25,667 nt of DNA from Thermoanaerobaculia bacterium (GTDB lineage: Bacteria; Acidobacteriota; Thermoanaerobaculia; UBA5066), in the NCBI GenBank assembly GCA_038245905.1, contig JBBRRY010000041.1, positions 1 to 25,667 of the forward strand, read 5' to 3'. Positions 2,320 through 22,401 of this stretch are shown piece after piece. The notes under the pieces are model-generated. The model had not been told where the DNA came from and searched no databases. It saw only the letters and a list, made by a program, of their open reading frames with translations. The position numbers and the translations under genes were made by a program. The first letter of the stretch is position 1, and every line of letters starts with the position of its first letter.

Positions 2320-2363
2320 GAATCCTCCTGGTGACGAGATCGTTGGCATGATGGTTCCTTCGT

Positions 2364-5928: not shown

Positions 5929-6641
5929 AGTTTCTCCAGGACCTTGGTGGCGAGGGCCTGCGCCATTGCGCGCGTATCCGTCTCGTACTGCGTGCCCTGT
6001 TTCTGGCTCGACGCCTTGATCGTGGCGAGGGCTCCCTGCATGGCTTCCCCGCTATTCAGACCGGCGGCCATGGGATCGTTCTTCTCGATCCCCTTGAGCT
6101 CCTCCAGCGCCTTGATCTGCTCGTCCGATCCGAGCTTCGCCGTGCGCATCCTTTCGGCCACCTTGAGTCCGGCGACCTGCTGCAGGTTCGGTGGCGTGAT
6201 CGTGACGACAGCGTCCCCCTTGCGGACGTAGAGGAAGGACATCGCGCCGAAGAACGCCTCGTCTCCGAGGCCGGGTACGGCCTCCGGCTTGCCGCCGAGC
6301 AACCCCGTCGCCTTGCGCGCTCCCTCCATCGTCTCGACGGCGTCGGCGACGTCGCTCCCCTGCTCCACCTCGATGCCCGCCTCGAGCTGCATCACGTCGG
6401 TCTTGTACGTGAGGCTCGTTCCCGTGCCTTCCACTGACGTGACGGGTTGCCCGAGTACGGCGGCAACTTCCTCTTTCGTGAGCATCGGGTCGGCCGCGCC
6501 CTTCGCGGCGGATCGACCGGCGCGCGGCGTCGAGCCGCCCGCGGAGACCTTTGCCGCTTCTCCCGGGGCCTTGTTGCACGCGGCGAGAAAGAGGCTCGGG
6601 CAGAGCGTGAGCGCGAGAAGGACACCCTTGGTTTTCGACAC
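5925..6641 (-). CDS. Hypothetical lipoprotein, paralog B
   Basis: GGAAGG RBS before GTG 6641; lipobox LAAC; shares LTKEEV, VPGLGDEAxFG, PPNLQQVAG and MAQALAxKVLEKL with paralog A. Confidence 0.85.
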   Translation of the reverse strand: MSKTKGVLLALTLCPSLFLAACNKAPGEAAKVSAGGSTPRAGRSAAKGAADPMLTKEEVAAVLGQPVTSVEGTGTSLTYKTDVMQLEAGIEVEQGSDVADAVETMEGARKATGLLGGKPEAVPGLGDEAFFGAMSFLYVRKGDAVVTITPPNLQQVAGLKVAERMRTAKLGSDEQIKALEELKGIEKNDPMAAGLNSGEAMQGALATIKASSQKQGTQYETDTRAMAQALATKVLEKL

Positions 6642-6772
6642 TGAGTTTTCCTTCCGTTGAAGGCGATCCAGCCCGGAGGCGACCGCCCTATGAGGGTCCC
6701 AAGAGACGGTGCGCCCGAAGAGAATGAGAGTCAAGCGCGTTAACCCACCGCTCGCGACGCTCGTGGCTCACC

Positions 6773-7060
6773 TCAGCCGAGTTGCGGAAGTTCCGGCTCG
6801 GCCGGCGCATCGGAGTGCGCCATCGCCTCCCACGCGGCTTCCATCTCTTCCCGGCTCCAGCCGAGAAAGTGGCCGTCGCCCCGGAAGTGAACGGCTCCGT
6901 CCGCGGCCTCGAGACGGACGATCGTACCCGCGCCCTCGTCGGCGCGGACGGCGATGCTCCACGCCGCGGCCGTGAACGAGGCCCCGCGCTCCCTCACGGG
7001 CACGCGCTCGATGAGAACGACCGGGCTCGTGAGAGTCGGCGCGGCGCTCATCGCGCTCAT
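6773..7060 (-). CDS. Small hypothetical protein (95 aa)
   Basis: ATGA overlap with the pcm stop; globular-looking sequence (FRGDGHFLGWS); fills the gap exactly. Confidence 0.7.
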   Translation of the reverse strand: MSAMSAAPTLTSPVVLIERVPVRERGASFTAAAWSIAVRADEGAGTIVRLEAADGAVHFRGDGHFLGWSREEMEAAWEAMAHSDAPAEPELPQLG

Positions 7061-7812
7061 CGCGAAGCCGCCGGGTCGCGCGGCGAAGGAGGGCCGCCCT
7101 CTGCTTCACCGACGAACGGGACGAAACGCACCGGCAGGACGCTCTGCTCGGTGTAGCCGCCGCCCTGCCGTTCGATCACCTTCAGCTCCTGATAGAACGC
7201 GCCGACGGGAATGACCATTCGCCCCGACGCGGAGAGCTGCTCGAGCAGCGGCGGCGGGACCTTCTCCGGCGCCGCGGTGACGAGAATCGCGTCGAACGGC
7301 GCCTGCTCCGGCCAGCCACGGTAGCCATCCGCCGCGCGCAGCTCGACGTTCTTCACGCCGAGCTTCTGGAGGCGCTCTTTCGCCTCGCGCGCGAGCTCCG
7401 GGCGGATCTCGATCGAGTACACCCGGGCGGCGAGCGACGCGAGGATCGCCGTCGAATAGCCGGAGCCCGTTCCGATCTCGAGAACCCTCTCCGTGCCTTT
7501 CAGGCGCAGCTGCTCCGCCATGAACGCGACGATGTAGGGCTGGGAGATCGTCTGGCCGCTCCCGATCGGCAGCGGCCGGTCGTCGTAAGCGGAGGGCACC
7601 TCGGCCGGCGAGACGAAGAGGTGCCGCGGCACGGCGCGCATGGCCTCGAGTACCCGCGGGTCTCTGATGCCTCGGGCCGCGATCTGGTTCTCGACCATGC
7701 CGCTCCGCTTTTTCTGCATCGGATCCGCCGGCTCCCGGCACGCCGCGGCGGCGAAAAGGATCGCCGCCGCGATCGCGGCGGCGGCTTCCCGTGAGCGCGG
7801 GCGGGCCTCCAC
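7057..7812 (-). CDS. pcm: Protein-L-isoaspartate(D-aspartate) O-methyltransferase with N-terminal signal/lipoprotein-like peptide
   Basis: VPRHLF, GQTISQPYIVA, VLEIGTGSGY, PFDAILVTAA and VRFVP motifs. Start is GTG 7812 (leaderless context) or ATG 7821. Confidence 0.95.
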   Translation of the reverse strand: MEARPRSREAAAAIAAAILFAAAACREPADPMQKKRSGMVENQIAARGIRDPRVLEAMRAVPRHLFVSPAEVPSAYDDRPLPIGSGQTISQPYIVAFMAEQLRLKGTERVLEIGTGSGYSTAILASLAARVYSIEIRPELAREAKERLQKLGVKNVELRAADGYRGWPEQAPFDAILVTAAPEKVPPPLLEQLSASGRMVIPVGAFYQELKVIERQGGGYTEQSVLPVRFVPFVGEAEGGPPSPRDPAASR

Positions 7813-7819
7813 GGACGCC

Positions 7820-7825
7820 ATTCTA
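7820..7825 (-). promoter_or_regulatory. Candidate -10 element TAGAAT for a leaderless pcm transcript
   Basis: TAGAAT lies 7 nt before the in-frame GTG 7812; no SD sequence. Confidence 0.45.
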
Positions 7826-7843: not shown

Positions 7844-9205
7844 TCATCCGCCGGGCGGAGCGGGACCCTCGGAAGCGCGCAACCGGCGCTGGAGCGGATT
7901 TTCGAGGGAGAGGATCATGGCGCCGAAGCGGATCTCCACGTCGAACGGGGACAGGAACGACTCACCGAGGATTCCATCCTCGATCCCGTCCGCCTCTTCC
8001 TTCACGACGATGTCCCGGAACCGCACCATGTACGCACCTACACCCACCGTCACGTTCGAGATCTTCGCCCACGACACGCGGGACTTCCCGATCCCTTCGA
8101 GCGTCACCGGGTATGCGGCTTCGATCTCGAAAAGAGGCGTCTTACGGAGCCCGCGGCGGGTGACCATCGAAGGCTCCGAACCCGTGTCCAGGAGAAACAG
8201 CGACCAGGGGTGCCCGTTGAGGGATGCGCGCGCCATGGGCTTCATCCGGCGAAAGAACAGATTCTGGTCCTTTGACCCGCGCACGAGGGACCGTTCGAGC
8301 CGCCGCGCGTGGACGAGCCGGTCGCCGTATGCGAGGCGCCAGTCGAACTCCTTCATGAAGTGCGCGCCGAGGACGCCGTTCAGGCTGAAAACCCCCAGAG
8401 CCGCCGTCTCGAACGTGAGCGTTCCGTCCGGCAGGACGCCCACCGGGACGTCGGTGAGCGTGACGTCGCCGAGACGAAGGGAATCGACCCAGCCGAGCCG
8501 CATCGGGAGGTCCGTCGCATGGAGGCCTTTCGCGGAAGCGGTCGCCCCCGGCACGAAGGTGACGCCGAGGCGCACCGCCGCGCTCTCGGTCAGGAGGGAC
8601 AGCGAGGCGCCGGAGTCGAGGATCATCTCTTCCGCGGCGTGCCCGTTCACGCGCACGGCGAGGCGGAGCAGATTCGGTCTCCCGAACGCGACGGGCAGCG
8701 AGAACCGCTCGCCGCCGGACGCGCCGCCGTAGGGAACGCGGCGGGACTGCGACTCGAGGAAGACGAGCCAGCCGTCCGGAACGCGCTTGCCTTCCCGCTG
8801 GGCGACGCGCCCCCAGCGCCCCGCCGTGGAAAATTCTCCTTCCCAGTAGGCGCCCTGCGAGAGAAGCCAGGCGAGCTCGGCCCGCTCGAACGCGCGGCCC
8901 GTGCCCGCGAGCGCGCGTTCGAGGCGCGGCGCGGCGCCGCGAAAGTCTCCACGCTCGAGAAGCACCTGGCCGCTCAGGCGGTCGAATCGGACGGCGTCGA
9001 GGCTTCGACCGCCCGCGCTGGACAGGAACTCCGCGACCTCGGGAATGTAGCCGCGGGCGAGCTGTTCTTCGGCGTTGAAGGAGTTCACGAGCCCGATCGG
9101 GACCGGCTTCGCGAGCTGATGGGGCAGGACCGCGAAATCACGCGAGAACGTGCAGGCCAGGGCGCCGAGCGCGGCCAGAAAAAGGCCGGCGCCCGCCCGT
9201 CTCAA
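7844..9205 (-). CDS. Lipoprotein with two retropepsin-like aspartyl protease domains and helical (TPR-like) N-terminus
   Basis: MILDSGAS..GVLGAHF and FLLDTGSE..GILGESF; signal ending GALAC; TTG 9205 overlaps the phosphatase stop (TTGA). Confidence 0.88.
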   Translation of the reverse strand: MRRAGAGLFLAALGALACTFSRDFAVLPHQLAKPVPIGLVNSFNAEEQLARGYIPEVAEFLSSAGGRSLDAVRFDRLSGQVLLERGDFRGAAPRLERALAGTGRAFERAELAWLLSQGAYWEGEFSTAGRWGRVAQREGKRVPDGWLVFLESQSRRVPYGGASGGERFSLPVAFGRPNLLRLAVRVNGHAAEEMILDSGASLSLLTESAAVRLGVTFVPGATASAKGLHATDLPMRLGWVDSLRLGDVTLTDVPVGVLPDGTLTFETAALGVFSLNGVLGAHFMKEFDWRLAYGDRLVHARRLERSLVRGSKDQNLFFRRMKPMARASLNGHPWSLFLLDTGSEPSMVTRRGLRKTPLFEIEAAYPVTLEGIGKSRVSWAKISNVTVGVGAYMVRFRDIVVKEEADGIEDGILGESFLSPFDVEIRFGAMILSLENPLQRRLRASEGPAPPGG

Positions 9206-10857
9206 GGCGCCGCCAGGACGCGGGCGATGAGGACGGTCTGGTCGTCGTACTGCGCGACGCCGGTCGTGAAGTCGTTTACGGCGCTGAAAATCTGCCGCGA
9301 GATCTCGGCCGGAGCTTCCGCTCGCCCCGCGATAGCCAGCGCGGTGAGCCTGTCCATGCCGAACTCCTCGTCGCTCCCGTTCAGGGCCTCCGTGATCCCG
9401 TCGGAATAGAGGAGGATCGTGTCGCCGGGCGCGACCCGGATCGACGCCTGCCTGTGAACGACGCCCGGCATCATCCCGACGGGCACTCCCCCGCTCGGCA
9501 GGAGGACGATGCCTCCCGGCGAGATCCAGAGCCCGGGGTTGTGCCCGGCGTTCACGTACGTGAGCCTTCCGTCCGCCGGGTCGAAGACCGCGATGAAGAG
9601 CGTCGCGAACTTGCGCGTCGAGGAAAACCCCACGAGATGTCGGTTCACCCGCGCCACGAGGCCCGGCAGATCCGAGGCGTTGTTCGGCACGAGAAGATGC
9701 AGGCAGGCGTGAACCGTCGACACGAGAAGCGCCGCCGGCACGCCCTTCCCCGAAACGTCGGCCACGCAGAAAGCCGTGCGTCCGTCCTCGAGCGGATACA
9801 CGTCGAAGTAGTCGCCCCCCACCTGCTTCGTCGGCCGGTTCGCGCCCGAAAAGACGAGGCCGGGAACGTCCGGGAGCGTGTCGGGAAGAATCGTCTTCTG
9901 GATGGAGGCCGCGAGCTCCATCTCGCGCTCCATCTTCTCCTTCTCGACCGCCTCGCGGTGGAGGCGCGCGTTCTCGAGCGCGATCGCGGCCTGGTTCGCG
10001 AAGAGGGACGCGACGCGCTCGTCGGCTTCGGTGAAATCGTCGATCGAGCCGGCGCGGTTCTCCTTGTCGGCCACGACGAGCACGCCGAGCCAGCGTCCGT
10101 CGGCGAGGATCGGCACCGCGAGCAGCTTTTCCGCGGGCGCGTTCACGAGAAGTCCCACGCGCTCCTGGATCGTGTTGCAGCGGAGCACCGTCGGCGGGAG
10201 GAGGCGGGCCGACTCGCCGTCCAGAAGCGGAACGCCCAGATGGCGCACGTAGACGGGCGTGTCCGCCGCGCGGTCGCACACGATGAGCGTTCCGGTGCGC
10301 GCGTTCAGGAGCGAGATCGACTTGTAGAGGATGTCTTCGGCGAGCGAGTCGAGGTCGAGGGTTCCCGCGATGGAGAGCCCGACGTCGTAGAGGCTCTGGA
10401 GCTCCCAGACCCGATACTTCAGCTCGAAGTCCGCCTTCTGCACCTTGTCGGCCATGCGCAGAGAGTCGAGAAGGCGGGCCGCGTGCGCCGTGACCGACGC
10501 GAGGCCGACCGGGTCGAGGGGAGGTTTTTCGAGCTCGAGGATCGCGAGAGTTTCCTCGCGGGCGGTGAGCGGAATCGCAACGGGCCGATCCGCGCTCGCG
10601 CCGGGCTTCGCCGGATGCGTGGGATCCAGAAGAACTCCCCGCTCCGCATGCGCTGCCGTCAGGAGAGCGGCGAGGATTCCGTCGAACAGGCGTTCGCGAT
10701 CGGAAAACGGGTCGAGTCTTGCGAGAGTCTCGTGGGCGGTCAGGATCGCGGCGCGCGCCTCTGCCTGCGGGACGAGGGGCCCGGAAATCGCCGCGCTACT
10801 CGGACTCGCCCCGGAGCCAGGCGAGAGCGGGCTCGGGAGCGGGAAAGATCCGTGCAT
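9202..10857 (-). CDS. GAF-domain PP2C/SpoIIE-family serine phosphatase (RsbU/RsbP-like)
   Basis: ELAASIQ, VGGDYFD, VADVSGKG, NAGHNP, YSDGITEA and DDQT motifs; upstream GAF. Start uncertain because ATG 10857 overlaps the STAS gene by 62 nt. Confidence 0.93.
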   Translation of the reverse strand: MHGSFPLPSPLSPGSGASPSSAAISGPLVPQAEARAAILTAHETLARLDPFSDRERLFDGILAALLTAAHAERGVLLDPTHPAKPGASADRPVAIPLTAREETLAILELEKPPLDPVGLASVTAHAARLLDSLRMADKVQKADFELKYRVWELQSLYDVGLSIAGTLDLDSLAEDILYKSISLLNARTGTLIVCDRAADTPVYVRHLGVPLLDGESARLLPPTVLRCNTIQERVGLLVNAPAEKLLAVPILADGRWLGVLVVADKENRAGSIDDFTEADERVASLFANQAAIALENARLHREAVEKEKMEREMELAASIQKTILPDTLPDVPGLVFSGANRPTKQVGGDYFDVYPLEDGRTAFCVADVSGKGVPAALLVSTVHACLHLLVPNNASDLPGLVARVNRHLVGFSSTRKFATLFIAVFDPADGRLTYVNAGHNPGLWISPGGIVLLPSGGVPVGMMPGVVHRQASIRVAPGDTILLYSDGITEALNGSDEEFGMDRLTALAIAGRAEAPAEISRQIFSAVNDFTTGVAQYDDQTVLIARVLAAP

Positions 10858-11158
10858 ATTGAGCGAGCCCCATGATCTGAAACGTCTTCTCGATCGTCGG
10901 CGTCAGACGGCAGAAGGCCAGTTTTCCCCCCTGATCGAGGAGCTTCTCCAGAATCTCGATGAGAATCGAGATCCCGATGGAGTTGACGATCTTCGTCTTC
11001 TCGAGGTCGAGGAGCAGGCGGTTCACCCCCGACCCGAGAAGGGCATAGGCCTCTTTCGCGATTTCCTCACCGCCGGTGTTATTGATGTAACCGTCCGTGC
11101 GGAGGATCGCGACCGTCGCATCGGGCCGGTCCACGACGACTTTCAAGGTCTCGCTCAT
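10796..11158 (-). CDS. STAS-domain anti-sigma factor antagonist (RsbV/SpoIIAA-like)
   Basis: 120 aa; LLDLEKTKIVNSIGISIL with the phospho-acceptor Ser position; AAAGGA RBS. Confidence 0.92.
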   Translation of the reverse strand: MSETLKVVVDRPDATVAILRTDGYINNTGGEEIAKEAYALLGSGVNRLLLDLEKTKIVNSIGISILIEILEKLLDQGGKLAFCRLTPTIEKTFQIMGLAQYARIFPAPEPALAWLRGESE

Positions 11159-11173
11159 TCGGTCCTTTATACC

Positions 11174-11611
11174 CTATCGATATTTGCGCATCACGATGCG
11201 CGTGCCCTGTTCGCCGCTCTCGATTCGGACGTCGTCCATCAGGCTTTCGATGATCTTGATCCCCCAGCCGCGCTTCCGGCTGGACCGGAGCGCGGCCGCG
11301 ATCTCGGGAGTCTTGAGGCGGGTCGGATCGAACCCGTGCCCCGAGTCCGCGACGCCCACCTCGAGATACGCGCCCCGGCCGCCTTCTTCCGCGCCGACGC
11401 GGAAGCTCAGCTCCACCTTGTGATCCGGCGTCGCGCTGTGCTCGAAGGCGTTGATGCAGGCCTCGACGACGGCCATCTTTACCTCGTCGATCTTGTCGCG
11501 GCCCATCTCCATCCACTCGCCCAGGGCCGCGACCTGCGCCGTGGCGGCGATTTCCATCTCCGGCGCGACCGGAATGGTCAGGTGCACCTCGCGATGTTCG
11601 ACCGACGACAT
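11174..11611 (-). CDS. Anti-sigma factor / serine kinase (RsbW/SpoIIAB-like HATPase)
   Basis: EACINAFEH (N box), DSGHGFDP (G1), RGWGIKII (G2). Confidence 0.93.
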   Translation of the reverse strand: MSSVEHREVHLTIPVAPEMEIAATAQVAALGEWMEMGRDKIDEVKMAVVEACINAFEHSATPDHKVELSFRVGAEEGGRGAYLEVGVADSGHGFDPTRLKTPEIAAALRSSRKRGWGIKIIESLMDDVRIESGEQGTRIVMRKYR

Positions 11612-11639
11612 CAGCTTATGGCAATCCCCTCTCGGAGCC

Positions 11640-11882
11640 TTAGAACGTCAGAAGCGCGCGAACCGCCGTGAAGAGGAACGCAGGAATCTTACCCGACCCC
11701 GAAACGAGAGCGAAGGCAGCGGCTTCGGCAACAAGGAGCGGCAAGATCAAGCGGGACGCGCGGATCGAGGAGCCGAGCGCCGCCGGAAGGGACGCCTGAG
11801 AGAAGGAAGAGCGCAGCGGCAGGGACGCGACTCGCACCAAAGCGCGTGCCGTCACAGCCTTGATTCCGCCCTCGCTGAACAT
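11640..11882 (-). CDS. Small hypothetical membrane peptide (80 aa)
   Basis: GGAGG at 11889-11893, 6 nt before ATG; sigma-54-type promoter directly upstream; hydrophobic C-terminal half; stop 28 nt before the RsbW-like gene. Confidence 0.65.
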   Translation of the reverse strand: MFSEGGIKAVTARALVRVASLPLRSSFSQASLPAALGSSIRASRLILPLLVAEAAAFALVSGSGKIPAFLFTAVRALLTF

Positions 11883-11909
11883 CTGGTGCCTCCGGTTGCG
11901 GCTTGCATC

Positions 11910-11924
11910 GCAATTGGCGGGCCA
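11910..11924 (-). promoter_or_regulatory. Sigma-54 (-24/-12) promoter
   Basis: Minus strand reads TGGCCCG-CCAA-TTGC against consensus TGGCACG-N4-TTGC: exact GG-N10-GC spacing with one mismatch. Confidence 0.75.
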
Positions 11925-11937
11925 CGCATGAAGAGCG

Positions 11938-11957
11938 CTTCACCGAGGAGGGTGAAG
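11938..11957. repeat. Inverted repeat CTTCACC-N6-GGTGAAG
   Basis: Perfect 7-bp arms just upstream of the -24 element. Confidence 0.55.
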
Positions 11958-11963
11958 TGAATC

Positions 11964-11976
11964 TAAACTGTTGAAA
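11964..11976. promoter_or_regulatory. Candidate IHF binding site
   Basis: TAA-ACTG-TTGAAA against consensus YAA-N4-TTGATW (one mismatch), at the edge of the AT-rich tract upstream of the sigma-54 promoter. Confidence 0.45.
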
Positions 11977-12105
11977 AGATTAGGTTTCCTTGAACGTAAT
12001 ATAGGCAGAGAGTAAGCCACACCTAAGTGCGTCATAATGTCACGCTAACATGCAATGGATCGCACCAAATGTCTTTACCATTCTAAAAAAAGAAGTTAAC
12101 AAATA

Positions 12106-12140
12106 TGAGACTATATGTCTCTATGTAACTAATAGTCTCA
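12106..12140. repeat. Inverted repeat TGAGACTAT-N17-ATAGTCTCA with nested GAGAC-N5-GTCTC, candidate operator/enhancer
   Basis: Perfect 9-bp arms in the AT-rich divergent intergenic region. Confidence 0.6.
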
Positions 12141-12221
12141 ACAACACAGGCGGCTTTCCTTGGCACAATGGCCGCCGCGCGCCCAATACTGATAAAAGTC
12201 GCGTTCCGCAAGGAGTCCGCC

Positions 12222-14480
12222 ATGAGCTTGTTCGAAAAGGAAGTCACCTCGACCCGGGCGTGGTTCGAGAGCCCACGCTTCGCGGGGATCGTCCGCCTCT
12301 ATACGGCGCGCCAGGTCGTCGAACAACGCGGCACTATCGCGCACGACTACACCGTCGCACGTGAGGCCGCAACCGCGTTCTTCGACCGCCTTCGCCAGCT
12401 CTTCGCGGAGAAGAAGAGCATCACGACCTTCGGCCCCTATTCTCCGGGGCAAGCCGTCGCGATCAAGCGCATGGGAATCGAGGGCATCTACCTGGGCGGC
12501 TGGGCGACGTCGGCGAAGGGCTCGACGAGCGAAGATCCGGGGCCCGATCTCGCGAGCTATCCGCTCAGCCAGGTGCCCGACGAGGCCGCAACCCTGGTGC
12601 GCGCCCTGCTCACCGCCGACCGTAACCAGCACTACCTGCGCTTGCGCATGACCGACGCGCAGCGCGCCGCCACGCCGGCCCACGACTTCCGGCCGTTCAT
12701 CATCGCCGACGCCGACACGGGCCACGGCGGCGACCCGCACGTCCGGAACCTGATCCGCCGCTTCGTGGAGGCCGGCGTGCCGGGGTACCACATCGAGGAC
12801 CAGCGTCCGGGGACCAAGAAATGCGGCCACCAGGGCGGGAAGGTGCTCGTGGCGCAGGACGAGCAAAACAAGCGGTTGAACGCCGCGCGCTTCCAGCTCG
12901 ACGTCATGGCCGTGCCCGGCATCATCGTCGCCCGCACCGACGCCGAGGCGGCCACTCTGCTCGAGAGCCGCGGCGACGAGCGCGACGAGCCGTTCCTCCT
13001 CGGCGCCACGAACCTCGAGGTGCCGGCCTACAAGGCGTGCTACCTCGCTCTTATCCGCAGCTTTTACGAGATGGGCGTCCACGGCCTCAATGGTCACCTC
13101 CTCTACGCGATTCCCGAAGGCGCCCACGCGCACGCCATTGGCTGGCTCGAGCGGAAGGGGCTCCTCGGCCAGGTCACGGAGGCCGTCGCCGCCTATGGGA
13201 ACGGAAAGGAATCCTCGCTCGACACCATCTTCGACAAGGTCGCCTCCCGGCTCGCGGCAGCGTGGGAGGAAGACGCTGGTCTCGAGACTTATGGCGACGC
13301 GGTCGCCGAAGTGCTCGAGTTTCGCGCCAGCGAGGGCGAGACGCTCGAGACGAGCGCCGACGAGTGGCGGCGTTTCGCGGCGCGTGCCTCGCTTTACGCC
13401 GCCCGCGAGAAGGCCGGCTTACTCGGCGTCGACATCGGATGGGACTGCGAGCTCGCGAAGACGCCCGAGGGCTACTACCAGGTTCGCGGCGGTATTCCGT
13501 ACGCCATCGCCAAGTCGCTCGCCGCGGCGCCCTTCGCCGACCTGCTCTGGATGGAGACGAAGACCGCCGACCTCCACGACGCGCGCAAGTTCGCCGAGGC
13601 GATCCACTCCGAGTTCCCCGACAAGATGCTCGCCTACAACCTCTCGCCGTCGTTCAGCTGGGACACAACAGGCATGAGCGACGAGGACATGCGGCGCTTC
13701 CCGGAGGAGCTCGGCAAGCTGGGCTTCGTCTTCAACTTCATCACATACGGCGGCCACCAGATCGATGGTGTCGCCGCCGAGGAGCTGGCGACCGCTCTCA
13801 GGCAGGACGGCATGCTGGCCCTCGCGCGCCTGCAGCGCAAACTCCGAATGGTCGAGTCTCCGTACCGCACACCCCAGACCCTCGTCGGCGGGCCGCGTGC
13901 GGACGCCGCCCTGGTCGCCACGTCGGGTCGCACGGCGACCACAATGGCGATGGGCACGGGTTCGACGCAGCACCAGCACCTCGTGCAGACCGAGGTGCCG
14001 AAGAAGCTCCTCGAGGAGTGGCTGGGATTGTGGACGAAGCATTACGGCCTTCCCGACGGGCTCTTCGTTCAGCTGCGGCCGCATCGCGCCGGCTCGGAGC
14101 TGCTCGAGCTCGGGGTCTTCGGCAAGGGGGCCGAGAAGCTCGCAAACGTCATCTTCGCCCCGATTCACGACCGGCGCGGTCGCAGCATTCTCTCGGTGCG
14201 CGACCAGAACACGTTCGGGGAGCCGCTGCGCAAGAAGCGCCTGATGACTCTCGTCCACCTTTTCCTCGTGCACCGCTTCAAAGCAGACTCGGTGCACTAC
14301 GTGACCCCGACCGAGGACAACCAGTACCAGACCGCGAAGATGAAGTCGCACGGCATCTTCCGCCAGGTCGACACCGAGGTCGGCCAGATCATCGTGGCCG
14401 ACGTCAACCACCCGCGCATCGCCGAGCTCCTCGCGCCGGACCGCGCCGCGCTCGGGAGACTGATCCGTAAGGAGGAGTGA
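12222..14480 (+). CDS. aceA: Isocitrate lyase, long ICL2 type with C-terminal acyl-CoA-binding (GNAT-like) domain
   Basis: AAGGAG RBS before ATG 12222; DADTGHG, HIEDQ, KKCGH (12816-12830), WMETK and YNLSPSF motifs; about 752 aa and, from recall, collinear with M. tuberculosis ICL2 including the C-terminal domain. Confidence 0.96.
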
Positions 14481-14485
14481 GGTCC

Positions 14486-16810
14486 CTATGGTTTCGCCGC
14501 GGGTCCGTCCGCGTCCACCAGCTCGAGCCGTTCGAACGAGGGGACTATGAACGTACCGACGGAGGAGTCGACGGGGCGGGTGCTCTTGCCTTCCGCCGCG
14601 GGAACGAAGTGGTACGTCTTCAGGGTGTAGACGCCTTCCGACAAGAACGCCGCCACGCTTACCGCCACGACCGGAGACGGCGCGTCCGACCCGACGCCGT
14701 TGGCAGCGAGGACTGCCGAAACGAGCTCGAGCGGGATGGGAATTCCAGCCTTCGAGAGGGCGTAGCGGCCGAAGCGCGCGGGAGTCTCCGATTGGCGCCG
14801 AATCGTCAGGCCGCCAAATGCGGCGGGTGGTCGCAACGCCACCTTCACGCGGCAATCTTCGAGCTTGTCACAGCTTGCCGGTGAGGGAAGAACACCCATC
14901 GCAAGGGCCTGCCCGGCCATGACGAGAAAGTAAGGCTTTCCGCCATACCGGTCTCCACGAAGGAGCACTTCGCCTTGCGAGTCTGTACTCCCCACGGTCG
15001 CAACCGCGCCCATCCGCCCCCCACCCGTGTAGTACGAAAAAGGCGATGCCAGAATCATCGCCGTGACGCCGGGAAGGGGCGCGTCCCTCTCGTCGACGGC
15101 GACGAGCACGAGGTCTTGCGCCGGATCCACCCGAACGTCCAGGTGCTTCATCTCGTCCTGCACGACGTCGACGCGCCCTACGTCCTTCGCGTAGTGCCGC
15201 GAGCAGTTCACCGCCACACGAACGACACCCTCCGCCAGGCCGTACTCCCGAACGAGGCCCAGGTCGTCGGCGTTCCGGGTCATGGACTTGGACGAGGCCT
15301 CTCCGATCTTGTCCCAGGTCAGGTCCACGGGACATCCCGGAAGCAGCTCGTTGGTCCGTGCGTCCCGCACGGCAATCTCGAGGCCCGTGGCGTCGAGCTC
15401 CAGATCGATGCCCTCGACGAGAGGCCTGTCGTCCGAGAGCGGTGTCGAGGACTGCGAAGTCGTAACCGCCTTCGGGTCGTCCGATTCCGCCCGGAGGCCG
15501 ATCCTGTTCCCCCTCGTCGAGACGACACTAAGCTCGAAAGTCCCGTCAGCGGCCGAGACCGTCGAGGCGGCAGTCCCCTCGCCGAGTCCATCGACGAACT
15601 CGGTTGCATCCACGCGGGCCGGTAGGGCCGCGCCACCGTGGAGATGAGTCGTTCCCCGGAATGTCCACTCCGCGACCGGCATGTCGACGACGAGCGTTTC
15701 ATCGCCGCCATCCTGCGCAACTTCAACCGTCTTGTGCGTGTTCCCGAGCCCCGGGATCCGAAGCTCGGCCTGGTAGATGCCGCCGTCGACGCGGGGAAAG
15801 CGCGCTCGCCCGGTGTCGTCGATCGGCTCGCGCCGCGGATCGAAGGGGAAGCAGCTCGTCCGCGGCTTTTGATTCCGGCAGCGGGCAAGCGTGGCCCCTG
15901 GCCGGGCCTCACCCCGACGAGTGGTCAGCCCAGAGACACGCACTTCGACGTCCGGGTTCGACACGAGAAAGACGTCGCGGCGGCCGGCCTCGAAAAGCGC
16001 GCCGAGCTTCAGCGTCGACGGGCGAAATCCCGCCGCCTTAATGCGTATGCTGAGCGGCGATTCCGCGGGGACGAGCGCGAGATCCATGACTCCGTTCTCC
16101 CCTGCCGGCGCGACCCGCTTCGCGAGAAGCACGGCAAGAGCCCGATCGGGCGTCTCGAAGGTGATCCCGTCGAGTCGCGCCCCCCGAATGGGTTTCCTCG
16201 CTGGCGCGTCGAAGGCGCCTATCGTCAGGGCCCGGCTCTGCAGCTCCTTCGCGACAATGAAAGATTCCTGGCTCGCCAGAACATCTCCTGCTGCCACGAG
16301 GACGGGTAGCGTCGGGCCTCGCTCGATCGCAAATCCATATCGGCCTGTGGGAATGCGGAATGAGGACCACGGAACGCCGCCGGCCGTTCCGTGCGCCGAC
16401 TCAAGAACCTCGAATTGCGCCGTCTGTCGCATTTCGTGCGGGCCGTCGAGCGCCGCAAAAAGGACCGGCCGCCGGTTTCCCTGAGAAGAAACGGCCCCGA
16501 TGCGCACGACTCCGGTCGGGAGAGCCGCGAGCGTGACAGGTTCGCCTCCACGCGTGAATGCACGTTCGCTGAACGTGCCCGGGCCGAGCGCCTGCACGAA
16601 GAGCGTGCCGGGTGGAGCGAGCGGTTTCGCCGCACCCTTTTCGAAAGGGACCTTTTCGTCCTTGAGAACGGTACCCGCCCCGTCGGTGAAGACGAGTCGC
16701 ACGCTGATGGCAGGAGCGGGTGCCGGCCGGATCTCGACGGAGAGACGCGCGTCGCCGGCCCCTACCGAAGTGACAATCTGAAAGAGCGCGACGAGAGTCG
16801 TGGGGCCCAT
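14486..16810 (-). CDS. Large putatively secreted beta-rich protein (carboxypeptidase-regulatory-like / prealbumin-like repeats)
   Basis: 774-aa ORF; hydrophobic N-terminus; recurring VRDARTNELLPG, AVDERDAPLPGV, AADGTFEL and TDSQGEV patterns. Confidence 0.7.
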   Translation of the reverse strand: MGPTTLVALFQIVTSVGAGDARLSVEIRPAPAPAISVRLVFTDGAGTVLKDEKVPFEKGAAKPLAPPGTLFVQALGPGTFSERAFTRGGEPVTLAALPTGVVRIGAVSSQGNRRPVLFAALDGPHEMRQTAQFEVLESAHGTAGGVPWSSFRIPTGRYGFAIERGPTLPVLVAAGDVLASQESFIVAKELQSRALTIGAFDAPARKPIRGARLDGITFETPDRALAVLLAKRVAPAGENGVMDLALVPAESPLSIRIKAAGFRPSTLKLGALFEAGRRDVFLVSNPDVEVRVSGLTTRRGEARPGATLARCRNQKPRTSCFPFDPRREPIDDTGRARFPRVDGGIYQAELRIPGLGNTHKTVEVAQDGGDETLVVDMPVAEWTFRGTTHLHGGAALPARVDATEFVDGLGEGTAASTVSAADGTFELSVVSTRGNRIGLRAESDDPKAVTTSQSSTPLSDDRPLVEGIDLELDATGLEIAVRDARTNELLPGCPVDLTWDKIGEASSKSMTRNADDLGLVREYGLAEGVVRVAVNCSRHYAKDVGRVDVVQDEMKHLDVRVDPAQDLVLVAVDERDAPLPGVTAMILASPFSYYTGGGRMGAVATVGSTDSQGEVLLRGDRYGGKPYFLVMAGQALAMGVLPSPASCDKLEDCRVKVALRPPAAFGGLTIRRQSETPARFGRYALSKAGIPIPLELVSAVLAANGVGSDAPSPVVAVSVAAFLSEGVYTLKTYHFVPAAEGKSTRPVDSSVGTFIVPSFERLELVDADGPAAKP

Positions 16811-16822
16811 GCCCTCTGGTCC

Positions 16823-18316
<1,494 letters not shown>

Positions 18317-18320
18317 GCCC

Positions 18321-19715
18321 TCATCCGTGGATGCGCGCGAGCTCGTCGAGCGCAGGCTGGTATCGGGGATTGCGCGCGAGAACCGGCTGAAGCGCCTTCT
18401 CGGCCTCGTCTTTTCTGCCAAGACGGGAAAGAGAGCCAGCCAGCAGAATTCGCGCCGTGTCCGTGCGTGAGTAGTAATCCGTTCCGCCGAGGCCAGAAGG
18501 CCCTCCTTCGGAAAGCACCTTCCCGAAAAGGTCGGCGCTCTCGGCGAATCGACCCACCTTGAAGGCCACGAGGCCGCGAACGAACCTGAGATCTCGCGCG
18601 TAGCCCTTCATCTTTTCCGGCTCGCCCTCCGTGGGGACGGCTTTCTCGAGAGCCTCGAGAGCCGCCTCGGCCCCAACGGCATCGCCCACACGCGCGAGGA
18701 AGACGGTACGACGGAAAAGCGTATTGAGAGCCATCGAGTCCGCTTCGCTTCCGGCCGGGAACGTCCGTGCCTCGGCCGTCATCTCGTCGAATTCCTTGCG
18801 CGCTTCTTCGGTCTTTCCGGCGTCGAAGAGCGCGAGGACCGCGAGGAACTGGAAATCCGCCCTGATCCAGGGGCCGGACGCGGCGTCGGCGGCCTTGCGA
18901 AAAAAAGCGGCTGCCTTCTCGGGATGGCCGCGGCCCAGCTCCACCGAGCCAAGGTGACCATAGGACGCGAAGAAGTCCTCCTTGATGGCGAGAGCCTTCA
19001 GGAGGTTCTCTTCGGCTTCGTCGTACCGCCCGATGCGAGCGTACATCTCGCCCAGCGAGTCGAATGGATTCGCCTGATCGGGCGCGAGATACCGGTACCG
19101 CTTCAGGAAGTCCTCGGCCTTCGCGAAGTCGCCGCGCTCGGCCCAGTAGTAACCGAGCACGTTGTAAGCGGTCGCGTAGTTCGGATTGATGGCGAGGAGG
19201 CGCTCGTATTCCGCGATGGCGTCCTCGTTCCGGTTGACGTTCGACAGGTGGTTCGCCCGCAGCCGGTAGCCCTCCGGGTCGTTCGGGAAGCGTTCGACGT
19301 ACTCGTCGAAGAGCTTTCCGAGAACGGCCATGTCTCGCCGGCCCCAGCGCTCCTCGTAGATCCGGAGCACGAGCTTCTCGCGTTCGGTGATCTCGTCGCG
19401 ATAGCGCGCCGCCGACGCGAGGAGCGATTTGGCCCGGTCGGGATCGCGTCCGCGCATCTTGTCGGCGAGACGCAGAGTCGCCATGACGAAGTGAGGGTCT
19501 TCCTGGAGCGCGGCCGCGTAGCCGGACATCGCCTCGCGCTCGTACATCTTCAGGTCGTTCTCGGACGCTTCGTGATACGCCTTCCAGGCCTTCTCAGACG
19601 ACGTCGTGACGTCCCGGCGGGCCCTCATGAAGTATGCCCCGGCCGTTCCGGCCACGGCCAGCCCGGCTACCACGAGGGTGAGAAGGATGGGGCGCAGGGA
19701 GCGGGGAGACGTCAC
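18321..19715 (-). CDS. Membrane-anchored/exported tetratricopeptide repeat protein
   Basis: N-terminal hydrophobic helix; repeated TPRs (AIAEYERLLAINPNYATAYNVLG, DSLGEMYARIGRYDEAE). Start GTG 19715 or 19718. Confidence 0.9.
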   Translation of the reverse strand: MTSPRSLRPILLTLVVAGLAVAGTAGAYFMRARRDVTTSSEKAWKAYHEASENDLKMYEREAMSGYAAALQEDPHFVMATLRLADKMRGRDPDRAKSLLASAARYRDEITEREKLVLRIYEERWGRRDMAVLGKLFDEYVERFPNDPEGYRLRANHLSNVNRNEDAIAEYERLLAINPNYATAYNVLGYYWAERGDFAKAEDFLKRYRYLAPDQANPFDSLGEMYARIGRYDEAEENLLKALAIKEDFFASYGHLGSVELGRGHPEKAAAFFRKAADAASGPWIRADFQFLAVLALFDAGKTEEARKEFDEMTAEARTFPAGSEADSMALNTLFRRTVFLARVGDAVGAEAALEALEKAVPTEGEPEKMKGYARDLRFVRGLVAFKVGRFAESADLFGKVLSEGGPSGLGGTDYYSRTDTARILLAGSLSRLGRKDEAEKALQPVLARNPRYQPALDELARIHG

Positions 19716-19721
19716 CACCCG

Positions 19722-19727
19722 ATGATA
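19722..19727 (-). promoter_or_regulatory. Candidate -10 element TATCAT for a leaderless TPR-gene transcript
   Basis: TATCAT lies 6 nt before the in-frame GTG 19715; no SD sequence. Confidence 0.45.
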
Positions 19728-19748
19728 CGCGCCGCCTGCGTCGAAGTT

Positions 19749-22361
19749 TTACCCGATCCGCATCAGAACGAACGTCTGGTCGTCGTACTGTTCGGCCTCC
19801 TGGGTGAACTGCCGGATGTCCTCGAGAAGCTCGTCCGCGAGCTCCGGGAGCGGCAGCCGCGCATGGCGTACGAACGACGCCTTGAGCCTTTCGTCCCCGT
19901 ACGGTGTCATTTCGGCCGACATCGCCTCGTTGAGGCCGTCCGTGTAGAAGAGGAGGAGGTCGCCGGGCGCCAGGTAGAACGTGACGGTGTCGTAAGGCAC
20001 TTCGCGGAAGGCGCCGAGAGGGAGCCGGTTCGCCGGGGCGGGAATCTCCACTGCGGCACCCGCGCCCGCGCGGACGAGAAGCGGGGTCGGCTGCCCGCCG
20101 AACGCATATGTGAGAGACAGAATCTTCGGATCGAAAAGGAAATACGCCAGCGACACGAACATCCGCCGCTTGATGTCGTAGAGGCGCCGGTTCGCTTCGC
20201 GGAACACGACGCCGGGATCGGGATCGGCCATCGCGCGCGCGTAGACGATCTCCTTCGCCGCGACCATGAGGAGGGAGGCCGGAATCGACTTCCCGGAGAC
20301 GTCCCCCACGACGAGGCCGAGGCGTCCGCCCTTGCGCACGTCGCCGTCCACCTCGAGGAAGTCGTAGAAGTCGCCGCCGACGACACGGGCCGGACGGCTC
20401 ACGCCGAAGAACGAGACGCCGGGCACGCGCGGCAGCGCGCGCGGAAAAAGGCTCGTCTGGATCTCGCGAGCGATGTCGAGGTCGCGCTCCATCTCGGCGC
20501 GCTTCGTCAGCTCCTCGTGCAGGCCCGCGGCCTCGAGTCCGAGGGCACCCTGATTCGCGATCGTGAGGAGGTGGTCGAGGTCCTCACGGGAAAGCTCCTC
20601 CTCCGAGCGCTTGCGCCCAACCGCGAGAAGCCCGAGAAGCTTACCGTGCGTGGCGAGCGGCAGCAGGACCGTGACGGGCCGGCGCTTCGCGGCCGTGACG
20701 AAGGCGCGGGAATCGGCGTCGAGGGTCCAGCCGTCGAGCTCCGCGAGCCGGACCGGCACGCCCTTCTCGAGGACGAGGCGAGGCAGCACCGCCCCCATCG
20801 GAAGCGCGGGCAGCCCCGCGCCGGCGCCGGACCCGTCGGCGAAGGCGCCGTCCTCGGCTCGCGGAAGAAGTAGATCGAGGCTCTCGAGCCGGAGGAGCTC
20901 GGCCGTCCTCGACGTCAGGAGCGCCCGCAGCTTCGGCCTTTCGAGCTGGGAGACGACCGAGCGGCTCATCTCGAGGAGCGCGTGCTGGAAGTCCGCGCGG
21001 TCGCGGAAGAACAGGCGGTCCACGACGCGCTGCATCCGCCTGCGCAGGGGGTCGAAGAGGAGCACGACGACGAGGGTGAAGCCGAACGCGAACACGGGAG
21101 ACGCGAGGAGCGTCGACGACGAGACCGTCGAGACGAGGGCGTTCCCCGTCACGACGCAGAGCGCGTAGAACCCCGTGACGACGGCCGTCAGGATCGCGTA
21201 GACGAGCGACTTGCGGACGATGACCTCGACGTCGAACAGCCGGAACCGCACGATCGCGTAGGCGAACGTGAGCGGAATGATCGCCATCGGAACGACGCCC
21301 CACGCGAGATAGCGGTCCTCGCGGAACAGCGACGGGAAAAAGACGGCGAAAACGACGAAGGGCACGATGCCGGCCACGGTCCCGAGGAGGAGGACGAGGA
21401 TGGGCCGGCGCTGGGCACGGTCCTCGCTCGTCCACCACGTGTGCGCGAGCGCGAGGAGCCCGAGGATGAGGTAGTCCGCGAGGAGGATCCAGTTCAGCGT
21501 CGGGGCCCCGTAGATGAGGCGCCTCAGCCTGCCCTGGTGCGCGCCCGCCATCTGAAGCACGTAGAGGACCGGCGGCAGCGTGTAGAGAAGGGTGAGGAGA
21601 AGGGGCGACCGGTTCAGGAAGCGCTGGAGCGTGCCGAGCCACCGGGCGGAGGGCGGCACGCCGGCGGCTCGCTCCGCGAACCGGAACGTCTTCTTCGCGG
21701 GGAAGAGCAGGAAAAAGTGGAGGAAGACGGCCGGCAGTAGGAAGAGGGCGAGGGTCCCCGCCACTTGCACGACGTAGTCGATCCAGTAGTAGCTGGACGG
21801 CCTCAGCCGGCAGATGAAAAAGAGCATGAAAAGGAGGCAGAGGACGTAGAAAACCTGGACAGCGGGGTCCTCCGGGCGCCGCGAGACCACGAACGCCCCG
21901 AGTACGAAAAAGAGAAGCCCCAGAAACGCGAAGTAGAAGTAGGACGCCGATCCGAGCCGGAACGGCGTGAGAATCACTTTCGTCTCGAAGACCTCGCCCT
22001 CGCGGCTCACGAGGTAGTCCACGGCCTCGCCCGCTCCGTGCCGGCGCAGCTCGGGGGGCGCCTCGGCCGCCTTGTTGAGCATGCGGTGGCCGATACCGAG
22101 GACCGTGTCGCCTGTCCTCAGGCCTGCCTTTTCGGCTGCCCCGCCCGGCACGAGGTCCCGGACGACGATGCCCCCCGTCGAGTACGGATCGGGCACGACG
22201 CCGTCGTAGGCCTTCGGCATGAACATGTCCACGACCGACAGGACCGCGAGCAGGCATGCGAGGACGCCGATGAAGACGAGGAGCGGTCTCGGCGAGCGCG
22301 AGCGGCCGGGTACGCCGCCCGCGCCCTCCGGGCTGCTCGGATCCGGCGACAGAACCGACAT
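19749..22361 (-). CDS. Membrane sensor phosphatase: TM-PDZ-multi-TM-GAF-PP2C/SpoIIE
   Basis: PDZ (GIVVRDLVPGGAAEKAGLRTGD); several TM helices; GAF-like LLGLLAVG..IANQ; VGGDFYD, GDVSGKS, YTDGLNEA and DDQT. Likely start ATG 22361. Confidence 0.92.
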   Translation of the reverse strand: MSVLSPDPSSPEGAGGVPGRSRSPRPLLVFIGVLACLLAVLSVVDMFMPKAYDGVVPDPYSTGGIVVRDLVPGGAAEKAGLRTGDTVLGIGHRMLNKAAEAPPELRRHGAGEAVDYLVSREGEVFETKVILTPFRLGSASYFYFAFLGLLFFVLGAFVVSRRPEDPAVQVFYVLCLLFMLFFICRLRPSSYYWIDYVVQVAGTLALFLLPAVFLHFFLLFPAKKTFRFAERAAGVPPSARWLGTLQRFLNRSPLLLTLLYTLPPVLYVLQMAGAHQGRLRRLIYGAPTLNWILLADYLILGLLALAHTWWTSEDRAQRRPILVLLLGTVAGIVPFVVFAVFFPSLFREDRYLAWGVVPMAIIPLTFAYAIVRFRLFDVEVIVRKSLVYAILTAVVTGFYALCVVTGNALVSTVSSSTLLASPVFAFGFTLVVVLLFDPLRRRMQRVVDRLFFRDRADFQHALLEMSRSVVSQLERPKLRALLTSRTAELLRLESLDLLLPRAEDGAFADGSGAGAGLPALPMGAVLPRLVLEKGVPVRLAELDGWTLDADSRAFVTAAKRRPVTVLLPLATHGKLLGLLAVGRKRSEEELSREDLDHLLTIANQGALGLEAAGLHEELTKRAEMERDLDIAREIQTSLFPRALPRVPGVSFFGVSRPARVVGGDFYDFLEVDGDVRKGGRLGLVVGDVSGKSIPASLLMVAAKEIVYARAMADPDPGVVFREANRRLYDIKRRMFVSLAYFLFDPKILSLTYAFGGQPTPLLVRAGAGAAVEIPAPANRLPLGAFREVPYDTVTFYLAPGDLLLFYTDGLNEAMSAEMTPYGDERLKASFVRHARLPLPELADELLEDIRQFTQEAEQYDDQTFVLMRIG

Positions 22362-22371
22362 GCTTCCATTC

Positions 22372-22401
22372 AGTATACGAATGGCGTGCCAAGGTGGTTC
22401 C
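22372..22401 (-). promoter_or_regulatory. Candidate promoter elements for the PDZ-phosphatase gene
   Basis: TGGCACG-CCAT-TCGT (sigma-54-like but GT at -12), TATACT and GGAAC-N17-CGT overlap within 30 nt. Confidence 0.35.

Follow-up and report, generated by a model that had tools for sequence, protein, structure and literature searches.

A putative two-tier signalling cassette of the class Thermoanaerobaculia in which an enhancer-binding protein and sigma-54 may drive an RsbW/STAS/PP2C switch operon

The stretch of DNA described here, referred to as the window, is the entire 25,667-bp contig JBBRRY010000041.1 (C41 in our numbering) of a Thermoanaerobaculia genome of the Acidobacteriota (3.80 Mb, 96% complete, ~67% G+C). 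It contains the genes of a partner switch, namely an RsbW/SpoIIAB-type serine kinase, a STAS protein and a soluble GAF-PP2C phosphatase, and upstream of them those for a membrane PDZ-PP2C phosphatase, a TPR protein and an enhancer-binding protein (bacterial EBP, bEBP) (Table 1). With moderate confidence, we read them as a two-tier signalling cassette of this class in which the bEBP and sigma-54 would drive an operon formed by a small open reading frame (ORF), rsbW and the STAS and PP2C genes. This reading is ranked first because the layout of activator gene, dyads, -24/-12 promoter and operon is the standard bEBP signature. The same gene-site-promoter layout was the criterion relied upon in a Desulfovibrio regulon study (PMC4641369).

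Since an isocitrate lyase gene on the plus strand and the gene of a 774-aa protein separate the two halves, the region is made of two transcription units and not of a single run. Partner switches are usually read as regulators of sigma factors; this class-wide cassette, found in uncultured soil and wetland Acidobacteria, has none and appears to sit under sigma-54 and enhancer control.

Linkage of the two halves and the sites between them

The relatives compared number 40, come from three families of one order and include the unpublished genomes G025 and G030, from which no locus was taken. In 36 of them (34 of 38 without these two genomes) the best matches to RsbW and to the bEBP share contig and strand. 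The gap between both genes is at most 620 nt in 25 relatives, ~1.5 kb in two and 2.9-5 kb in nine; among the remaining four, the pair is split by short contigs in three and the last genome is 51% complete. All fourteen 20-kb loci from the three families (L071-L084) show the same order, with holB-tmk divergent from PDZ-PP2C followed by TPR, bEBP, spacer, RsbW, STAS, GAF-PP2C, a variable gene and the protein-L-isoaspartate O-methyltransferase gene (PCMT). In other families of the class, 13 of 14 loci have the bEBP gene directly upstream of RsbW-STAS-GAF-PP2C. For the most part the PDZ-PP2C and TPR genes do not adjoin it there: no TPR gene was detected in any of the 14 loci (L165-L178), and L178 has its PDZ-PP2C gene right against that of the bEBP. 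The adjacency of bEBP and switch extends over at least 13 families while the flanking genes differ, and across the class the bEBP gene usually ends 400-620 bp upstream of rsbW. A sequence-only reading of the window had joined the two halves in one circuit, and the two do co-occur and are linked in relatives.

The spacer contains a sigma-54 type promoter. All 15 loci examined have a TGGC-N7-TTGC element 200-414 nt upstream of rsbW. When 79 distinct loci were scanned from -450 to -150, requiring GG, GC and no fewer than 9 of the 11 consensus positions, the -24/-12 element appeared in 74, compared with 3/79 on the reverse strand, 1/79 in coding sequence and 42/1580 in shuffled sequences. It is present in 13 of the 14 class-level loci and absent in all six loci of other classes that have RsbW-STAS-PP2C without the bEBP. 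The promoter that the sequence-only reading had placed at the head of the switch operon is real by these measures: -24 GG, -12 GC and their fixed spacing are kept at a conserved position across relatives.

Two tandem dyads are located ~200 bp upstream of the promoter, inside the ~100-250 bp range of upstream sites, and one of them, GAGACATATAGTCTC, is the only perfect GAGAC-N5-GTCTC of the window. With up to two mismatches this motif is not enriched in the window (26 against 26.5 expected), so the case for the dyads rests on position and conservation. Among the 79 upstream regions, 33 of the 48 exact GAC-N5-GTC occurrences fall at -220 to -190 from the promoter, both dyads and a third block are conserved in a 77-sequence alignment, and the class-level loci have related GnGACA-N3-TGTCnC dyads. 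The bEBP probably uses the dyads as binding sites (upstream activating sequences, UAS1/2). In nhmmer searches of the genome, the model of the third block has its top match at the site itself (E 0.19), the next being much weaker. No second copy of the dyad site was found with three short models (combined model, E 3.3e-09 for the window site and 4.2 for the next), a search of low power; it gives a hint that the bEBP may be dedicated to the switch promoter. The dyads were not parted from the switch promoter by the insertion of the lyase and 774-aa genes. L168 retains promoter, dyads and small ORF even though another contig carries its bEBP gene.

After the insertion the dyads lie only 29 nt upstream of the start codon of isocitrate lyase, on the opposite strand, so bEBP binding might also affect the lyase promoter in this genome.

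The first gene after the promoter is always the small ORF, which starts 17-30 nt after the element across loci and in the window has GGAGG 8 nt before its ATG. Hydropathy marks a hydrophobic, possibly transmembrane segment at residues 45-63, and the C-terminus reads ...AVRALLTF. Its equivalents (50-90 aa) end in ...RALLTF in this genus, ...LQLFLRF in family f2 and ...LLQxYLxF elsewhere. All 15 loci compared, and the class-level loci too, have the ORF with its C-terminal motif; neither Pfam nor NCBIfam gives a match to it, and it is absent in the six other-class loci without the bEBP.

A second sigma-54 promoter, before the PDZ-PP2C operon, was considered and not accepted: the candidate, TGGCACGCCATTCGTA (22376-22391), lacks GC at -12. 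The genus-conserved part there, ...GCCATTCGTATACT, is more like a -10 box (the f2 equivalent is ...GCCATTAACAT). Between tmk and the PDZ-PP2C gene, the 32-bp gap (22362-22393) contains a genus-conserved GGAAC-N5/6-TGGCACGCC(A/G)TTCGTATACT, also found in L071 and L073-L075, which looks half -24 element and half -10 box.

The switch proteins and the enhancer-binding protein

The nearest solved relatives of the kinase are B. subtilis RsbW (PDB 6m36, E 3.9e-12) and SpoIIAB. The N-box Glu and Asn (E50, N54) and the G1 (D89-G91-G93) and G2 (R114-G115-G117) boxes of GHKL serine kinases are all present and invariant in 35 sequences. The STAS protein has a single domain, and its conserved, phosphorylatable Ser60 aligns with the SpoIIAA serine that differs between the PDB constructs 1th8_B and 1tid_B (altered in 1tid/1til) and that we take to be the phosphosite. 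RsbW scores under the NCBIfam cut-offs for RsbW and SpoIIAB, STAS also stays below the NCBIfam cut-offs and, with all switch proteins below the equivalog cut-offs, these are distant members of their families. STAS is the best-conserved protein of the cluster: its identity, 94-99% in the genus and 60-68% over the order, exceeds that of RsbW, bEBP and PP2C. Within the class it keeps 51-68% identity against 34-56% for RsbW, which is among the least conserved, a pattern that would fit an output centred on STAS at least as well as one centred on RsbW.

Both phosphatases have a full SpoIIE profile and the GGD(Y/F)xD, DVSGK, (S/T)DG and YDDQT motifs of the SpoIIE/RsbU-type PP2C, which we take to be the metal-binding Asp motifs. 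They read GGDYFD, ADVSGKG, SDGITEA and YDDQT in the soluble enzyme and GGDFYD, GDVSGKS, TDGLNEA and YDDQT in the membrane one. The start of the soluble GAF-PP2C is uncertain because of the overlap with the 3' end of the STAS gene; the protein is kept in all 34 loci of relatives examined except L168. The PDZ-PP2C, first gene of the upstream operon (ATG at 22361), has an ortholog in each of the 14 order-level loci. Its hydropathy gives one transmembrane segment, the PDZ domain, ~10 further hydrophobic segments, and then GAF and PP2C. We propose that the PDZ domain may be periplasmic and the protein an envelope sensor. The TPR gene is likewise present in 14 of 14 order-level loci, and its product has one N-terminal hydrophobic segment (residues 11-29), which suggests that it is exported or membrane-anchored. 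With these motifs intact, the kinase, STAS and PP2C parts look functional.

Parts of the switch operon (PP2C, STAS and rsbW) are covered by contigs of relatives, at 90-97% identity, in two metatranscriptome runs, and one 200-nt contig of an RNA library spans from the start of rsbW into the end of the small ORF. The two runs contained 5-6% of the sampled words, the contigs carry no information about start, strand or level, and the uncovered parts are uninformative, so that this is a weak hint of expression of the switch operon in relatives.

The bEBP has an AAA+ domain that contains the Walker motifs A (GESGTGKE) and B (LDE), and a C-terminal HTH_8. It has a GAF domain and no Response_reg match in Pfam, and there is no histidine kinase in the cluster. 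Its L1 loop (17478-17509, minus strand) is GVATGV where GAFTGA is expected, with the threonine retained and the phenylalanine changed to alanine. FGIExGVATGV and both Walker motifs are invariant in the 28 aligned orthologs, and ~20 other bEBP-like L1 loops of the genome read G(A/S)F(T/S)(G/D)A. The phenylalanine of GAFTGA is needed in PspF, and a natural GVATGV variant conserved without exception bears on how strictly it is needed. A degenerate FGIExGVATGV pattern matches every genome of the class but G009 (26 of 27, or 25 of 26 if G025 is left out) and 9 of 274 other Acidobacteriota genomes; the reversed control gave none. Six of the proteins with GVATGV outside the class were examined: four have FHA, three of these beside genes of Hanks-type kinases, and two have GAF.

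Elsewhere in Acidobacteriota the loop is found in FHA-AAA+-HTH proteins beside Hanks-type Ser/Thr kinase-TPR genes (L203-L208). L203 has two such FHA-bEBP/kinase pairs ~12 kb apart, each adjoining a large gene of an OMP_b-brl_4 outer-membrane barrel. In two genomes of the genus the bEBP match is split into two adjacent pieces (G009:C41:12467-13873 and G007:C1:764244-765753), which may be a frameshift or an assembly error.

A kinship with the PEP-CTERM proteins PrsK/PrsR/PrsT (models TIGR02915 and TIGR02916), to which the best NCBIfam names pointed, was rejected. The bEBP reaches 350.7-350.9 bits where the PrsR cut-off is 502.6, all 18 bEBP matches of the genome lie at 300.9-429.6 bits, also under it, and the PrsK match has 52.5 bits for a cut-off of 300.

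Proposed wiring, alternatives and precedents

In the wiring we favour, the first tier would be an operon with a sigma-70-like upstream region (the promoter type is tentative) coding for the PDZ-GAF-PP2C sensor, the TPR protein and the GVATGV bEBP. The bEBP would bind the three conserved sites and, together with sigma-54 RNA polymerase, fire the -24/-12 promoter of the second tier, which would drive the small membrane protein, the RsbW kinase, STAS and the soluble GAF-PP2C and, in this genus, the protease lipoprotein and PCMT as well. RsbW would phosphorylate STAS on Ser60, and the phosphate would be removed by the membrane PP2C on envelope input and by the soluble PP2C on cytoplasmic input. 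The output of the switch would then leave the cluster, towards a partner that is not encoded alongside and, by the examples of Vibrio Syp and Pseudomonas Hsb, does not have to be a sigma factor. The action of this bEBP on these sites, the direction of the phosphorylations and the output are what we infer from sequence. Such a cassette provides a defined promoter with its enhancer, a small membrane protein that is conserved and unannotated, and two sensor PP2Cs, for envelope and cytoplasm.

Several points weigh against this wiring. The neighbourhood and promoter counts come from related genomes and hence overstate independence. The promoter copy of the window has two mismatches to TGGCAC-N5-TTGCW and is not significant alone (7 matches with two mismatches or fewer against 4.6 expected), and the scan for uniqueness of the dyads has low power in a genome that is 96% complete. 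GVATGV replaces the GAFTGA phenylalanine, and the functional support for it is one regulon prediction in another phylum. Moreover, a bEBP that merely switches on the switch leaves the physiological output unexplained.

The sequence-only reading had considered the bEBP, or sigma-54 transcription, as the output of the switch, in an envelope-sensing feedback loop. Several findings agree with it: the halves are linked, rpoN is present, no bona fide SigB/F/G was found and the sigma-54 promoter is conserved. It is the direction that changes, for the layout points to the bEBP acting on the switch operon and not the reverse. A closed feedback loop, in which RsbW or unphosphorylated STAS would bind or phosphorylate the GAF-bEBP and the target of the bEBP would be the operon of its own regulators, is doubtful but possible. 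This design can be likened to sigma-B autoregulation and is compatible with the first tier of the favoured wiring. A bEBP with GAF instead of a receiver, in a cluster without histidine kinase, would suit it, and so would an operon mate that is a PP2C sensor, an enzyme whose usual substrate class is phospho-STAS. The conservation of the cassette as a unit and the lack of another dyad copy in the genome (in that low-power search) argue in the same direction, as does the tie of other GVATGV bEBPs of the phylum to Ser/Thr phospho-signalling (4 of 6 with FHA, 3 of these 4 beside Hanks-type kinases). Furthermore, NifL, a GHKL-domain protein, binds the GAF-bEBP NifA and thereby inhibits it, and HrpS is acted on by HrpV/HrpG.

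Against such a loop, the module is found in other classes without this bEBP. In eight other-class genomes with 46-50% identical RsbW plus STAS and PP2C the GVATGV motif is missing (0/8), and the five tested all gave bEBP matches at paralog level only (267-286 bits versus at least 495 for orthologs within the order). Conversely, the nine genomes outside the class that have a GVATGV bEBP are not among the RsbW matches found. The RsbW-STAS-PP2C module and the bEBP type occur independently outside the class and neither needs the other, which somewhat weakens the claim that the switch controls the bEBP. The faster divergence of RsbW compared with STAS is also unlike what a conserved RsbW-bEBP interface would give. 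A 1:1 complex prediction of bEBP and RsbW from one alignment each (score 0.01, mark 0.32) has no weight either way.

More specifically, RsbW, STAS and PP2C could have been recruited as anti-activator and anti-anti-activator of the bEBP, a version that we regard as doubtful. Envelope stress would make the PDZ-PP2C dephosphorylate STAS, which would strip RsbW off the bEBP or engage its GAF domain, and the bEBP would then fire the operon of its own regulators. If true, sigma-54 transcription would here have a partner switch of its own, self-contained and autoregulated, with the small membrane protein as its first product. A switch acting back on the bEBP would also be the first RsbW/RsbV-type control of sigma-54 transcription; no description of such control was found in the portions of the literature on partner switching and enhancer-binding proteins covered here.

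We consider it unlikely that this is a classical anti-sigma switch in which RsbW sequesters an unlinked sigma-70-family factor, either a 295-aa group-3-like sigma on contig C6 or one of ~17 extracytoplasmic function (ECF) sigmas, and the bEBP sets the amount of switch. The closest solved relatives of the kinase, RsbW and SpoIIAB, are true anti-sigma factors, and candidates exist: by NCBIfam the sigma set of the genome is one RpoD, the ~17 ECF-type factors and the 295-aa r2-r3-r4 sigma, which falls under every cut-off. However, no protein reaches the SigB/F/G cut-off of 234.35 bits, the best being RpoD itself (128.7) and the 295-aa sigma (122.1), and the latter is probably RpoH-like since it adjoins dnaK and a MerR/HspR-like gene. 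The contig carries no Sigma70_r2 match out of the 19 in the genome. The cassette thus lacks the cognate SigB/F-type sigma factor of partner-switching systems, and the sequence-only reading was right that the window has no SigB, SigF or ECF gene; the genome-wide search for SigB-type factors extends this, and that for rpoN located the gene (Sigma54_DBD, 214.8 bits at C1:207577-208050). No sigma gene adjoins the RsbW ortholog in the 40 fetched loci inspected, nor any of the RsbW-like genes of this genome that were examined.

Other RsbW/STAS pairs of the phylum sit with cyclic di-GMP (c-di-GMP) enzymes (GGDEF/EAL/HD-GYP), which also speaks against a sigma factor as partner. In this genome a second pair on contig C51 (L185:7897-8681 and 10835-17019) is near EAL, receiver, histidine-kinase, GGDEF and cNMP-binding/FHA genes and a further STAS gene, and a third RsbW-like domain is fused to DUF7005 on the 1.1-kb contig C113 (L022). 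A Rosetta-stone test was uninformative about the bEBP. The 725-823-aa ORFs of family f40 with a C-terminal RsbW-like domain turned out to be paralogous c-di-GMP modules; these fusions, of 725-780 aa in L209:3413-5620, L210:3382-5562 and L211:5292-7637, have a ~600-aa N-terminal part without Pfam match and are flanked by PocR-GAF-GGDEF, STAS and GAF-HD-GYP genes.

Finally, it is very unlikely that the two halves are mere neighbours without regulatory link, the promoter being served by another bEBP (conceivable with ~18-20 bEBP genes in the genome, and with a dyad assignment that rests on sequence) or the spacer motifs being a terminator or sites of another regulator for the small ORF or the upstream operon, given an adjacency kept in at least 13 families despite changing flanks, the joint presence of promoter, small ORF and bEBP and their joint absence in other classes (0/6), and sites at typical enhancer distance that travel with the promoter after insertions.

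The closest precedent for the favoured wiring, by analogy, is Syp of Vibrio fischeri. There the sigma-54-dependent activator SypG drives the syp locus, which encodes the STAS protein SypA (first gene) and the RsbW/PP2C protein SypE, and the output of SypA is not known to be a sigma factor (PMC4517449; PMC8256260). Common to both are a sigma-54 activator driving a locus with STAS and RsbW/PP2C proteins and the absence of a sigma factor in the locus. SypG is a receiver-domain response regulator of a phosphorelay and SypE fuses kinase, receiver and phosphatase, whereas here the bEBP has GAF and GVATGV and the kinase and two sensor PP2Cs are separate. The cassette also has no glycosyltransferase or export (polysaccharide) genes, it includes a membrane PDZ-PP2C and a leading small membrane protein, and it belongs to another phylum; a receiver bEBP, a fused SypE and a polysaccharide locus, the marks of the Syp type, are all lacking. 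With this precedent the statement of the sequence-only reading that such a circuit is undescribed was too strong.

Like the RsbU/RsbV/RsbW-sigma B system of B. subtilis, the cassette has an RsbW-type kinase, a STAS protein with a phosphorylatable serine and two PP2C inputs. In the sigB operon a constitutive upstream portion is followed by a downstream portion that an inducible internal promoter controls, a logic that the cassette shares. Here, in contrast, there is no sigma B/F gene in operon or genome, the internal promoter is of the sigma-54 type with an enhancer, the kinase gene precedes that of STAS, and RsbW and STAS are below the NCBIfam cut-offs. Anti-activators of bEBPs are known in the NifL-NifA, HrpV/HrpG-HrpS and PspA-PspF systems. 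In these a protein partner (NifL with a GHKL domain) holds the bEBP inactive and a third protein relieves it, but none is known to use an RsbW/STAS/PP2C phospho-switch.

In D. vulgaris, DVUA0100 is a GVATGV bEBP whose predicted role is to activate the sigma-54 promoters of the type III secretion operons, in a study that also mentions PspA-PspF (PMC4641369). It has the same three substitutions in GAFTGA and is, as described there, a one-component bEBP co-located with predicted sigma-54 promoters. Its N-terminal region and targets (type III secretion) are others and its activity is predicted. HsbR/HsbA of Pseudomonas are an RsbW/STAS pair without adjacent sigma factor linked to c-di-GMP; the cassette differs in having no c-di-GMP enzyme and in its tie to a bEBP and a sigma-54 promoter.

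Gene map and accessory genes

The gene map (Table 1) was built from third-position G+C and Pfam matches. The genes that the sequence-only reading had listed on one strand are all real: Pfam and inspection of starts place the named switch and bEBP genes on the minus strand over 7844-22361, with the coordinates it gave. The isocitrate lyase, the 774-aa gene, the small ORF and PCMT had been overlooked. The genes tmk and holB are divergent from the PDZ-PP2C gene.

Table 1 Features of the cassette and its surroundings in the window
Feature	Position	Strand	Evidence or remark
PCMT, protein-L-isoaspartate O-methyltransferase	7057-7821	-	Pfam PCMT 7.6e-61
Aspartyl-protease lipoprotein	7844-9205	-	two Asp_protease_2 domains, E 1.3e-20
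Soluble GAF-PP2C phosphatase, up to 551 aa	9202-10857	-	SpoIIE 2.7e-46, GAF 9.4e-10
STAS anti-anti-sigma-type protein, 120 aa	10796-11158	-	STAS E 1.2e-11
RsbW/SpoIIAB-type serine kinase, 145 aa	11174-11611	-	HATPase_c_2 E 2.6e-22
Small ORF, 80 aa	11640-11882	-	heads switch operon
Sigma-54 type -24/-12 promoter TGGCCCGCCAATTGCG	11909-11924	-	motif scan and conserved position
Third conserved upstream block TGTGnCAttnTGncaCG, here GCGTGACATTATGACGCAC	12024-12046	-	conserved alignment columns
Two tandem dyads, GAGACTATTAGTTAC + ATA + GAGACATATAGTCTC	12107-12139	-	candidate UAS1/2
Isocitrate lyase, long form, 770 aa	12168-14480	+	ICL E 3.4e-118
Uncharacterised 774-aa protein	14486-16810	-	sub-threshold CarboxypepD_reg match at most
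GAF-AAA+-HTH_8 bEBP with N-terminal helix	16823-18316	-	Sigma54_activat 4.4e-65, HTH_8 1.2e-12, GAF_2 2.8e-10
TPR protein, 465 aa	18321-19718	-	Pfam TPR families, e.g. TPR_2 4.3e-19
PDZ/polytopic/GAF/PP2C protein, 870 aa	19749-22361	-	SpoIIE 6.9e-44, PDZ_2 4.9e-06, GAF 0.003

The protease gene has a TTG start that overlaps the stop of the GAF-PP2C gene, and its signal peptide, MRRAGAGLFLAALGALAC, ends in a lipobox. The lipoprotein has two retropepsin-like aspartyl protease domains. As an accessory gene it was seen in close relatives and family f1 only; families f2 and f3 have in its slot a ~550-aa protein with an amidohydrolase-like N-terminus (Pfam Amidohydro_3, checked on the L168 counterpart only). 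PCMT follows 22 nt after the protease on the same strand and is probably the tail of the switch operon. All 14 order-level loci have it downstream of the switch, as do 5 of 14 class-level loci within the fetched span.

The isocitrate lyase gene is present in two of the 14 order-level loci (L074 and L075) and in several of L085-L095, and absent in f2 and f3. The 774-aa ORF starts 13 nt after the bEBP stop and has good third-position G+C; it was found in this genome only, with no tblastn match in any of the loci L071-L184. As the gene order shared by the 14 order-level loci does not include them, both genes are taken as insertions in part of the genus.

Downstream of PCMT, three consecutive minus-strand ORFs at 3494-6734 (269, 240 and 635 aa) have no Pfam match. 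Farther on, ~5 kb downstream of the cluster, a DUF4412 gene (1531-2367, minus strand) adjoins a gene of the OmpA family (2364-3536). DUF4412 genes are also found directly upstream of the RsbW ortholog in two other-class loci (L180:2838-3617 and L183:5630-6346), and the neighbourhood of DUF4412 and RsbW may be a recurring association.

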